Origin: Kondoa subrosea
Lineage: Eukaryota
Assembly: GCA_039545335.1 (NCBI GenBank)
Contig: BCIN01000005.1
Coordinates: 1-64,000 of the forward strand
Direction: 5' to 3'
Length of the DNA: 64,000 nt
Shown piece after piece: positions 45,998 through 50,907 of this stretch; positions within the stretch are counted from its first letter, which is position 1, and every line of letters starts with the position of its first letter. The notes beneath the pieces are model-generated. The model was not told the DNA's origin. It saw only the letters and a program-made list of their open reading frames with translations, and did not search any database. The position numbers and the translations under genes were made by a program.

Positions 45998-46387
45998 GGT
46001 GGTCTATGGCAAGACGTGATTTTGCCAACTCATATGAAGGCAATGAGGCAGATGAATGTTGTCGCATCGAGATAGAAGCACAGATATATATACTGCAATT
46101 ACACCGAGTCTAATCCCAAAGCATGCAAATTCTTTGCAGTTTACAAGGTCTGTCAACCGCCAACAGCAAAGTATGAGCAGAGGCACAACTTCGTATGATG
46201 AACTGACCATCAAGCTCCATTTGAGCAGCGAGATTTTCCCATCTTAAGCAGTCCGCTTGCCAGAATCAACGCGAAGTCCAGCGTTGTTGGAAGAGAGGTC
46301 TGCTGGAAGATCCTTTGCCGTTCTCGTCGTGCTTTGGAACCCTCGCTCAGTGCCCTCATTTGGCAGAGCAGAAGGCGCTTTGGGAAG

Positions 46388-48361
46388 TCAATCTTCGTCA
46401 TCCTGTATATGCCATTTTAGTCAAGCCTCGAGAGCGGCATACTTCAAACGGACCGAGTCGTCGTAGAACTCGTCGTCGTCATCCTGTTCACAAGGCCAAT
46501 CGACAATCAGTATCAACCTGATTACGATCGAGCTATGCGAACCTCGTTCAAAGCATCCGAAATCTGAGCGAAATCCACTTTGTATCGCAAAAGACCACCA
46601 ATTCCACCGAACCCTGTGCATACAGGACTGACAGTATGAGACAATACTCATGGGTCGTACTCTTGACGCACCTCTGACGAATTGAGATCCCTCTTGTGAC
46701 TTGTTGGTAACGAATTCCAAAGCAGCACCAAACTCTTTATAATTCTCCGCCATCCATTCCAGAAGCGGTTGTGGATCTTTAGCCTGTTCCATCTCCAAAC
46801 CAGTCACTTTATCCAAAAACTTGGCTTGATCTTTTTCGCTCAATGCAGCAATACCAGCAGCTTGTTTGGATCCATCATCAGCTTTACTTGCGTTGGAGGC
46901 AGTAGGTGGTGGTGCAGCTGTGTGGATGATGACTTCTTTGCCTTCAGAGTTTCGCAGTACTCGACGAGTCACATCCAGATCTTCCCAAACGATCAAGGTT
47001 TCCACAGCACCCATTTCTAAACCTCGCAATGTATCATCAACACCGAAACAATATTTGCCAGTATCGGTTGAAATTTCGTCAAAGTATTTCTGAATCAATC
47101 TGTACGTACAAGAAGAAGGCACAAATCAATATTTACTCTGATTAGAGGAACTCTGACGCACTTCTTCTCTTGGATGAACTTGACGTTTGCTAAAGCGTCA
47201 CCAGCCAATTCAATAGCTTGATTGAAACCATTTTCTCCACCATAAGAAACATCCACAATCTTCATGATTTTAGCCTGCAATCTTCCATCCAACATATCGG
47301 ATTGAGATAATTCGGTCTTGAAATCAGCGCTACCAGCCATGACGATACCAACAACGTTGACTTTATCGTCGGTAATGAAATGTTGAACGGCGAATTCAGC
47401 AACTTTTCGGACATAGTTGTGTCTCTTCTCTTCACGAAGACGAGCGAAACGTAAAGCGGATTGACCACCTCGACCGTGCTTCTTTGGCAGATCGACAGTG
47501 AACTGTATCACAAACCCGTTTGTAATCAACGAAAGTTGATGACATCAGGCAATCGTAATACCTTGTGCAAGATCTCTCGAGTGTTACCAGCCACAGTGCC
47601 GAACAAAGTACCGTTACCGTCCATGATGATGAATCCAAACTTGGAATCGCTCTCGAGTAAATCCGCTAGAGCTTCAGTGTGAAACTTGTTGTCGCACAAG
47701 TAGAGAGAAGTGTTGATCGGCTTGAATGCTGTAAGCAGTAGAATCCTTCAATATCACTGAACGCGATTGTAAGACTCAGCTTACGTTCAAAGTCAAAATT
47801 GACTTTCTTCTCCTTCCTGTGCACAAAAATAAGTTTACTGCAATGTCGAGACATGAGACACTTACCCTTCGTCTGTCAAGATTGTACCGCAGTATACAAC
47901 GAGACCATTCGGCGGTACTCGATTGTAAAGCTTCAAGCGCTGTTGCGTGGAAGTGATAGCTGCCAAGACTGATAGACGATTGACTCGAGATTTGATGTTG
48001 GAAGCAGTTCCCAGTCTGTAGGTGCAAGAAAGAACGAGATCAACGCTGAAGCCGCGTGAAACCATCGCAAGGACTTACTCGTTCCTGTATGTACGAATAT
48101 TTACTGAGCACTACACAGCGCAACAGATATTCATCACTTACGCCAACATGTTTGTAGCTTGAGCGATTTGGGACCTCGGCGGCAGGATGAGCGAAATCTA
48201 GTGCAGCACAACGAAACAATTTGTCAATGCCCCCAGTCTTGCAACCTGTGTGAGTGGATATAACAGACCATACTAGTACCAGCACCTCTTGCTGCGTTGA
48301 GACTTCTGACGAGCTTCTTGACTTTCCATACTTGCAAATTCTGTTCAGCAATATCGGTCAT
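46388..48361 (-). CDS. SUP45: Eukaryotic release factor 1
   Basis: GTS, TASNIKS, YLCDNKF and [12 protein letters not shown] motifs. Confidence 0.96.
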
Positions 48362-48551: not shown

Positions 48552-49756
48552 ATGCCAGACAGCCTGCGAGGAGAGCGAACTTCCTTCTCTACCTATTCAA
48601 CTCAAACAAAGCATTGGCTCTCCAATCCTGTCGTATCTGCTGGTCTTGCTTCGTGTACTTTAATTGGAGTGTACGCTGTTCGGAAACGTTTCGCTCGCAT
48701 TCAGAATCATGATTTCGTTACTGTCTGTTTTGTCTTCTCCTCCTTACCTTCACATCCATTTGATGCTTTCATGGCTTTCAGCCTCCTTTGATCGCTGCGA
48801 AACGCGTTATCAAAGGTAAAGTAGTCAAGAGTAAGTCTCTTGTACTCGAAGAATTGTGTATCGCAAGCTGATTCAATCCAGTGAGCAGTAGCTGATGCGG
48901 TCCGTCCATGCACCTTCTTAAATTCGAATCGAGCTCATAATACTCGCAGGACGGTTTTCGACTCTATCATACTCCCTTTCCAAGCTTCTTACGAAGTGTA
49001 CCAACTACTCATAAAGGTACACATCGATGACATCTGTGTTTTTATGAAGTCTGGCTGATCCGCTTGTTGCAGCACAACAGAAGCAGACTATATCAATAAG
49101 AATCGCAGGTGTTGATGCACCGGAATTAGCTCATTTCGGTAATGAAGCTCAACGTACGCTCCTTCTTCTACTTTCATAGTAAGATATGTGAGTAGAACAC
49201 GGAGAATACAGCGTTTTCCAAAGAAGCTTTTGATCTCTTATCGAACCTCGTTCTGGATCGAATGGTTACTGTACAACTATTACGTAAAGATCATAAGTTG
49301 CCTGTTTTTCTCTTCAAGATCAAAGAGTCTTTGAGCTGACATTTCCGCTCAGCACAATATGGCAGGATAGTAAGCTTCTATACCTCATCAAGTGCATAGA
49401 CAAAGCTTACTCAATGCAATTTCAGGTGGGGCTAGCTCATGTGAGGAGATTCCCTTGGTTATGGAGAACTTCCGTCAGTCTCGAAATGGCCAAAGCAGGC
49501 TGTCCGTTTCTTTCCTCCTTGGCTTTTTCTCTACTTATTCTCAAGACCTGCACGGAAAACAGTGGCAGAACTTTATACTGGATCAGGAGCAGTATACGGA
49601 TCAGAAGCGCATAAAGAAGCTTTGATAGCGGCGATAGAGAAAGCGAAGAAGAAGAAGTTGGGGATTTGGAGCAGGAAGAATTTAGAATCTGCCAAAGCGT
49701 ACAAGAAACGGGTATCTAGTTCTGGGTCAAACTCGAGTTCTAGTCAAAGCGAATAG
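48552..49756 (+). CDS. LCL3: Staphylococcal-nuclease-domain endonuclease, LCL3-like; many exons
   Basis: DADGFRLYHTP, IRIAGVDAPELAHFG, (D)QYGRI and AKKKKLGIWS. N-terminal TM segment. Confidence 0.85.
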
Positions 49757-49961: not shown

Positions 49962-50907
49962 CTACCAAGTGTAAGACTCCATGGACTTAAACAAACCACC
50001 TTCCTTTGGCTCCCAACCAGTCCATTCCTTCGTCTTGTAAGCCGTCCCTTTGCCTCCCATGGCCATAACAACCGCGATAAAGCCATACCCATTCTTCATC
50101 AAGTCTTCCATCGTAGCATCCTTGACAGGAAGATCCAATTTCTTGCTGATGAAATTCGCAATATCTTTCAATGGAATACCTTCTTCTTGAACCGCATGTA
50201 AGTGAACTTTGCTTGGACCTTTAGTGAGAGCAAGAAGATAGAGAGCACCAGCATCTTTTGCATGACAAGCTGACCAAACTTGAGATCCATCACCCACCAA
50301 AGCTACATGACCTTGTTTCTTAGCTTGAGCGATTTGTGTTGAAATGAAAGGATGTTCAACAGATGAAGAATGAGTTACAGGTGGTAGACGAAGGTTGATA
50401 GCTCGAACACCTTTGTCGGCGTAAGAAAGAGTTAGGTCTTCAGAAAGGGATCGAACAGAATGAGCGTTTTGATGTTTCCCTGAAGATTCGTCTGGAGTGA
50501 TATTACCCAATAAACCGCTTGTGTTGATGAAAGTCTTGTTTGTGCCAACCATAGCATCACAAATTGTAGATATAACATTGCGATCTTGTTCGCAAGCTTC
50601 TGCCATCTTGCCAGAGAAAGCTAGATCATGATTGAATCCCAGGTGAATGACAGCGTCAGAGTCTTTAGCAGCCTTAGAGAGAACATCCAGGTCGGTGATA
50701 GATCCTTTGACTGTTTGAACACCTGGAGCAAGAGCTTCTACTTTCGCTTTGGATGCATCTGAACGAGCCAGTCCAGTAACGGTATGGCCCGCTTGAACGA
50801 GCTGAGGGATAGTGTTGGAGCCGACTAGGCCTGATGCTCCGGTGACCTGCACAAGGATCAGCTCTATGCGCCTTCAGCCTATGGAGTGGACTCACAAATA
50901 CTTTCAT
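49962..50907 (-). CDS. NAD-dependent epimerase/dehydratase (atypical SDR)
   Basis: MKVFVTGASGLVG, GHTVTGLARS and DAVIHLGFNHD. Confidence 0.9.

Follow-up and report, generated by a model that had tools for sequence, protein, structure and literature searches.

A probable U2-type AT-AC intron in the LCL3-like nuclease gene of Kondoa subrosea

Introduction

AT-AC type II introns begin with AT and end with AC but depend on U2, and they are rare: Sheth et al. (2006) counted 24 of about 610,000 introns in five species, with human SCN4A and SCN5A and TAF2 of human and Drosophila among the examples, and took conservation of the ends in orthologues as support (PMC1557818). ATAAGT is the consensus reported for U2-type AT-AC introns (PMC5029451). 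These articles, like the others cited below, are drawn on as excerpts.

In Saccharomyces, Parker and Siliciano (1993) reportedly studied an engineered AT-AC intron. Natural AT-AC splicing in this yeast comprises a nested intron of RPL30, which yields a minor isoform of 1-2% (PMC5029451), and the SUT635 protointron (PMC6726248). RNA-seq assigned AT-AC ends to 69 of 14,305 junctions in Trichoderma longibrachiatum (PMC4324775), and AT-AC junctions are also on record for Fusarium graminearum (PMC3577648). As for introns of the minor class, a survey of more than 3000 genomes contained no convincing case in Basidiomycota (PMC10639083), and matches to minor RNAs were described in a single basidiomycete, with no conclusion drawn in the excerpted text (PMC7072748).

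Here, we describe a candidate member of this class, intron 6 of an LCL3-like nuclease gene, in a 64,000-nt window of Kondoa subrosea DNA (contig BCIN01000005.1, positions 1 to 64,000; assembly GCA_039545335.1). Like the animal type II introns, as far as the excerpts describe them, it has AT and AC ends, an ATAAGT donor and major-spliceosome signals, whereas it differs from them in its length of 63 nt, in its intron-dense fungal host, in which no minor-spliceosome RNA was found, in the CAG that adjoins its AC and in being predicted from genomic DNA. With the excerpted Saccharomyces cases it shares the AT-AC ends and a fungal host lacking a minor spliceosome or, here, one in which minor RNAs were not found. 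However, those cases are minor isoforms or non-coding, whereas the AT-AC cut of intron 6 appears to be needed for a normal protein, and its donor fits the ATAAGT consensus, which that of RPL30 does not. The Trichoderma and Fusarium junctions make up a fraction of a percent and stem, like intron 6, from Dikarya, but from ascomycetes; the excerpts assign them no spliceosome type and do not name LCL3. U12-type AT-AC introns have the terminal dinucleotides alone in common with intron 6, which has neither their ATATCC donor nor their CCTTAAC branch site. No publication on LCL3 intron 6 was found in the literature searched, in which supplementary intron tables could list fungal AT-AC cases. Intron 6 would add a case to a known class.

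Results

The LCL3-like SNase/TNase gene occupies positions 48552 to 49756 of the forward strand, with an inferred start codon at 48552 and a stop codon ending at 49756. It comprises nine coding exons encoding 247 amino acids if intron 6 is cut AT-AC, and it is single copy, with one match in the 18.9-Mb genome of 27 contigs. The other seven introns are all GT-AG, measure 50 to 61 nt and leave the frame intact. These are intron 1 (48723 to 48781, 59 nt), intron 2 (48831 to 48888, 58 nt), whose acceptor was picked by homology among several AGs, intron 3 (48900 to 48949, 50 nt), intron 4 (49017 to 49072, 56 nt), whose donor lacks +5G and follows an exon ending in AAG, intron 5 (49154 to 49211, 58 nt), intron 7 (49370 to 49425, 56 nt) and intron 8 (49502 to 49562, 61 nt). 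Intron 6 is the longest of the gene. Four AGs stand in a row at the end of intron 2 (48880 to 48891), the third of which fits the homologues, and the gene contains two micro-exons, one of 11 nt ahead of intron 3 (48889 to 48899) and one of 14 nt (49356 to 49369).

An eRF1 gene with many introns (Pfam eRF1_3; about 46200 to 48361, minus strand) lies head to head with LCL3, the two starts being about 190 nt apart. A promoter common to both genes is suggested. A gene for an NAD-dependent epimerase/dehydratase (49962 to 50870, minus strand) lies tail to tail with LCL3 and ends about 200 nt from its stop codon.

Pfam SNase matches on LCL3 exons 5 and 9 were weak and below cut-off, and the last exon alone, used as query in a protein search, had no match. 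Searches seeded with the last exon yielded a set of 233 homologues of at least 140 amino acids, many of them named LCL3. The nearest belong to Pucciniomycotina (47-52% identity). In a tree of 37 proteins the query joined no supported group, which leaves membership of this subphylum no more than probable for the organism. Its terminal branch was the longest (1.27), as expected for a protein without close kin; its root-to-tip distance lay inside the range of the homologues. A profile of 14 fungal homologues aligned the LCL3 motif with D83-K-Y-G-R87 of the thermonuclease chain 4qf4_A, and, with staphylococcal nuclease numbering counted from this alignment, residues matching Arg35, Asp40, Glu43, Asp83 and Arg87 are all present in the spliced model. 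We take Arg87 to be a catalytic residue and Asp83 to be a conserved structural or substrate-pocket/substrate-binding residue rather than a catalytic one. By homology, the product is classed as an SNase-domain protein with predicted nuclease activity.

Intron 6 extends from 49293 to 49355 on the forward strand, in phase 1, and contains one in-frame TGA, which its retention would bring into the reading frame. The original prediction had placed a 63-nt intron with the signals ATAAGT, GCTGAC and CAGCAC here, and a direct cut of the sequence bore this out. Exon 6 (49212 to 49292) ends with the codon of an invariant Asp (residue 153, SNase Asp83) and one further base, and exon 7, the 14-nt micro-exon, encodes Tyr-Gly-Arg (Arg157, SNase Arg87). 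The 5' splice site ATAAGT (49293 to 49298) matches the 5' end of the genome's U1 at +2 to +6. The branch site GCTGAC (49335 to 49340) has its branch A at 49339; the distance from this A is 46 nt to the AT, 16 nt to the AC end and 13 nt to an alternative CAG end. The 3' splice site is CAC (49353 to 49355). The competing CAG acceptor (49350 to 49352) lies three bases ahead of the AC and serves both a GT-AG and an AT-AG option. The competing donor GTAAAG (49284 to 49289), inside exon 6, lacks both -1G and +5G and is 55 nt from the branch A.

For the raw-read check called for at 49293 and 49355, the contigs of two DNA runs showed the same letters (word depth 143.5 and 54.6, no differing letters). 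Both runs derive from one sample, may be the source of the assembly, and were each assembled separately into one contig spanning the stretch. Since two separately assembled runs carry the same bases, an assembly slip at the intron ends is unlikely; the agreement bears on such a slip and does not exclude a strain-specific mutation.

The AT-AC cut ranked first among 26 open in-frame cuts, out of 148 GT-AG, GC-AG, AT-AC, AT-AG and AT-AA cuts tried in the region. It produces D-Q-Y-G-R-I in the 247-aa open frame, and thus the DxYGR motif whose restoration had been claimed. The GT-AG option (49284 to 49352), which uses the donor GTAAAG and measures 69 nt, preserves the frame and deletes the Asp, again as anticipated. 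A third in-frame option, absent from the original prediction, is AT-AG (49293 to 49352, 60 nt), whose product retains the Asp and gains a Pro. With the query left out of the profile, the AT-AC product scored 301.0 bits, the AT-AG product 293.1 and the GT-AG product 283.9, and in 133 BLAST comparisons the AT-AC product came out ahead of the GT-AG product 132 times and tied once. The alignment of homologues proposed as a check showed the Asp in 232 of the 233, the lone exception (P0011) being a garbled segment. In no homologue is the Asp separated from the next residue by an insertion, and none of the 233 carries the GT-AG form of the motif. Among metagenome loci, D[QRH][YF]xR was present in all of the best 80 of 282 confirmed, and none of these 80, which are intron-poor genes or transcripts, has an intron at the position of intron 6. 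By inspection, the cut can slide by only one base each way, to CA-CA or TA-CA, so that AT-AC is the sole known pair at the protein register. The predicted ends of the intron, AT and AC, are fixed by this register, and homology sets the predicted cut beyond chance.

ATAAGT matches the U2 consensus in all but its first base, and GTAAGT ranks among the most enriched donors in the genome (55 seen, 4.6 expected). GCTGAC is a U2-type branch site, and its 16-nt spacing to the intron end recurs in 23 of 300 look-alike canonical introns. The U12-type 5' site, RTATCCTT, does not fit intron 6, which reads ATAAGTTG, and the branch motif CCTTAAC does not occur in its 63 nt. That the donor is U2-like and not the U12 ATATCC, as had been proposed, agrees with its match to the genome's U1 at +2 to +6. 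Four U1 copies with a canonical 5' end, below the Rfam cut-off, are present in the genome (G000), each of about 180 nt (C1:1708176-1708355, C1:1714006-1714185, C4:373418-373597 and C4:1498388-1498568). Two U2 copies, above the Rfam cut-off, form an inverted pair on contig C8. Genome searches for U11, U12 and U6atac, run without a positive control and open to escape by an intron-split snRNA gene, found none of them. Judged by its motifs, intron 6 has signals of the major-spliceosome type. We also looked for a U1 variant that would match a donor beginning with A and rejected this possibility, as all four copies have the canonical 5' end. The two U1 genes on C1 lie 5.7 kb apart in opposite orientation.

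The strength of the competing sites was gauged by counting donor enrichment upstream of branch-site and acceptor motifs, independently of annotation, in 873 kb of the genome (424 kb unselected and 449 kb of flanks of selected sites). GT[AG] donors with +5G were enriched 5.6-fold, and those with neither -1G nor +5G, the class of GTAAAG at 49284, 1.1-fold (196 seen, 178.7 expected). Within the same 873 kb, C|GTAAA was seen twice against 1.8 expected, and C|GTAAGT 13 times against 0.6. Donor-to-branch distances peaked at 32-43 nt, which puts the AT site of intron 6, at 46 nt, in the tail. Strong donors 44-51 nt from the branch A numbered 35 against 24.0 expected (p 0.02), and with a looser branch motif donors at this distance numbered 103 against 72.3. 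At 54-61 nt, the range that includes the GT rival, strong donors showed no excess (13 seen, 23.9 expected). In pairing with U1, the GT donor matches at 7 of 11 positions and the AT site at 6 of 11, with similar duplex energies (-1.9 and -2.5 kcal/mol), and some real LCL3 donors pair worse (intron 1, -0.2 kcal/mol; intron 8, +0.5 kcal/mol). The donor of intron 4, GTACAC, likewise belongs to no enriched class. The branch-to-acceptor spacing of 13 nt that CAG would have occurs in 38 of the 300 look-alike introns. Some use of the competing GT-AG and AT-AG cuts is possible because of the U1 match of the GT donor, the weakness of some real donors and the common spacing of the CAG.

Two further genes contain comparable introns. 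In the gene for a tRNA-guanine transglycosylase (TGT, QTRT1-like), a 51-nt ATAAGT...TAC intron (C3:1915245-1915295, minus strand; locus L148) gives the exact register of PDB chain 6h45_A when cut AT-AC, whereas cutting GT-AG four bases further along, which keeps the frame, replaces a conserved Asp with Asn. Near the end of the gene for the chaperonin CCT3, a 53-nt ATAAGT...CAC intron (C1:201941-201993, plus strand; locus L092, 1501 to 1553) restores, when cut AT-AC, the Val at position 523 of PDB chain 5gw4_g, whereas canonical cuts drop the residues that follow this Val, which we take to be conserved. Both introns end in AC without an earlier AG; in CCT3 there is none between branch site and AC. 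They were found by eye among 80 distinct AC-ending sites, and both of the two sites tested against PDB held. Read in this way, the genome is predicted to hold at least three ATAAGT...AC introns (LCL3, TGT and CCT3).

Only two of the 79 other AC-ending sites were confirmed, and most of the remainder are chance matches or unconfirmed candidates. A genome-wide count of the pattern showed no bulk excess, with 84 matches ending in AC and 205 in AA or AT, a ratio near the expectation from base composition. Since the pattern approximates the reverse complement of a normal intron, antisense introns probably account for many of the AT-AC matches. With a looser pattern there were 216 matches, which were left out. 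Sequence was retrieved for all 80 distinct AC-ending sites and for about 65 controls out of the first 100 listed, and 158 sites were classified (52 AC only, 28 both, 78 control only). Candidates and controls could not be told apart by the lack of an AG close by (30 of 80 and 24 of 78), nor by a weak coding model. Of 59 flank pieces chosen by eye, ARPC5 gave the sole Pfam match; its intron was read as canonical and rejected. Another candidate is a 51-nt ATAAGT...CAC segment (C1:2642022-2642072, plus strand; locus L123, 1523 to 1573), the removal of which joins two hydrophobic stretches. These stretches look RTA1-like; Pfam gave no match and hence no support for this candidate.

Discussion

Protein conservation, the donor and branch signals, the snRNA inventory and the TGT and CCT3 introns together argue that intron 6 is, very probably, a constitutively removed U2-type intron with AT-AC ends. 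This sustains one half of the original prediction, that of a rare AT-AC intron handled by the major spliceosome and liable to be mis-predicted by gene finders that look for GT-AG. The other half, in which alternative splicing would switch the nuclease between an active and an impaired form, found no backing: the class of the competing donor is without detectable use, no homologue has the GT-AG motif, and nothing points to regulation. The Asp lost from the supposedly impaired form is SNase Asp83 by alignment.

Primary papers on the pairing and rescue of A-C intron ends are said to be those of Parker and Siliciano (1993), Chanfreau (1994) and Wu and Krainer (1997). The pair that joins the two terminal bases of an intron is not of the Watson-Crick type; it is usually G-G, for which A-C can substitute (PMC11585973), and in excerpts on yeast and human a G-to-A change at +1 is rescued, less efficiently, by a terminal G-to-C change (PMC1557818). 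Extended to intron 6, what has been published for yeast and human on A-C pairing, and on AC being chosen rather than AG, suggests the following course. U1 and then U6 would engage ATAAGT through +2 to +6, and U2 would pair with GCTGAC. During the second step, the two end bases of the intron would pair, the A at +1 being matched by the terminal C. Because this A needs a terminal C, the spliceosome would skip the nearer CAG and ligate after CAC, yielding a normal nuclease.

Several other readings have to be weighed against constitutive AT-AC removal. One holds that intron 6 is cut at GT-AG (49284 to 49352), giving a protein from whose motif the equivalent of three residues is lost, a net two residues shorter and without the Asp, or that the allele was recently disabled, so that the fit to AT-AC is the remnant of a mutated intron. 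The GT-AG cut has canonical ends, stays in frame, uses a CAG at a common spacing and has a donor that matches U1 at 7 of 11 positions; yet its product loses 17 bits and has a motif seen in 0 of 233 homologues, and neither a donor without -1G and +5G nor a branch distance of 55 nt is detectably used. Decay, for its part, would take two substitutions landing on the sole mutually rescuing pair, one of nine possible, while the remainder of LCL3 is intact. We regard both variants as very improbable. It is still less likely that the AT donor is joined to the nearest AG beyond the branch point (AT-AG, 49293 to 49352), adding a Pro after the Asp. This cut would be in frame, keep the Asp, use the first YAG, at 13 nt, and score merely 7.9 bits below AT-AC, but no homologue has an insertion after the Asp, in the TGT and CCT3 introns no AG precedes the terminal AC, and AT-AC is the most efficient pair after GT-AG in the excerpted yeast data (PMC6726248).

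A regulated switch between a full nuclease (AT-AC form) and an impaired one (GT-AG form) would account for two in-frame cuts with one branch site in common, and in TGT, likewise, an in-frame GT-AG cut four bases on replaces a conserved Asp. However, every ATAAGT holds a GT four bases in, so that decoys arise without selection, and both the lack of detectable use of the GT donor class and the absence of the short form from all homologues make such a switch highly unlikely. That assembly or sequencing errors made an AT-AC intron out of a GT-AG one is scarcely credible: the two runs, which may be the assembly's source and are thus not an independent sample, each gave one contig over the whole stretch with no other letters at the depths stated above, and two errors 62 bases apart would be required.

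It is tempting, though distinctly far-fetched, to go beyond constitutive removal and to speculate that the AT-AC type II introns of this genome are a selected class rather than merely tolerated exceptions, in which A-C ends lock in the 14-nt exon carrying Arg87, the CAG just ahead of the AC is an early recognition signal and enzyme output is tuned by splicing fidelity through GT-AG decoys. The 14-nt exon would be bound to be included, since the AT donor would be a poor partner for the AG of the next intron. Were this true, the decoys that remove a conserved Asp in LCL3 and TGT would tune the output of the respective enzymes.

For annotation, constitutive AT-AC removal means that a gene finder restricted to GT-AG would report an LCL3 protein without its invariant Asp and a TGT with Asn in place of Asp. 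The presence of at least three predicted introns of this kind in a genome in which no minor-spliceosome RNA was found suggests that intron-rich basidiomycetes regularly contain type II introns and that this class has been overlooked. Intron 6 reveals no new machinery. With CAG and CAC three bases apart behind an A-first donor, it offers a natural experiment on how the 3' splice site is chosen.

Read in reverse, the region of intron 6 (minus strand, 49340 to 49277) resembles a 64-nt GT-AG intron with GTCAGC, ACTTAT and a terminal TAG, since ATAAGT comes close to the reverse complement of a branch motif and GCTGAC to that of a donor motif. Resemblance of this kind inflates pattern searches for AT-AC introns.
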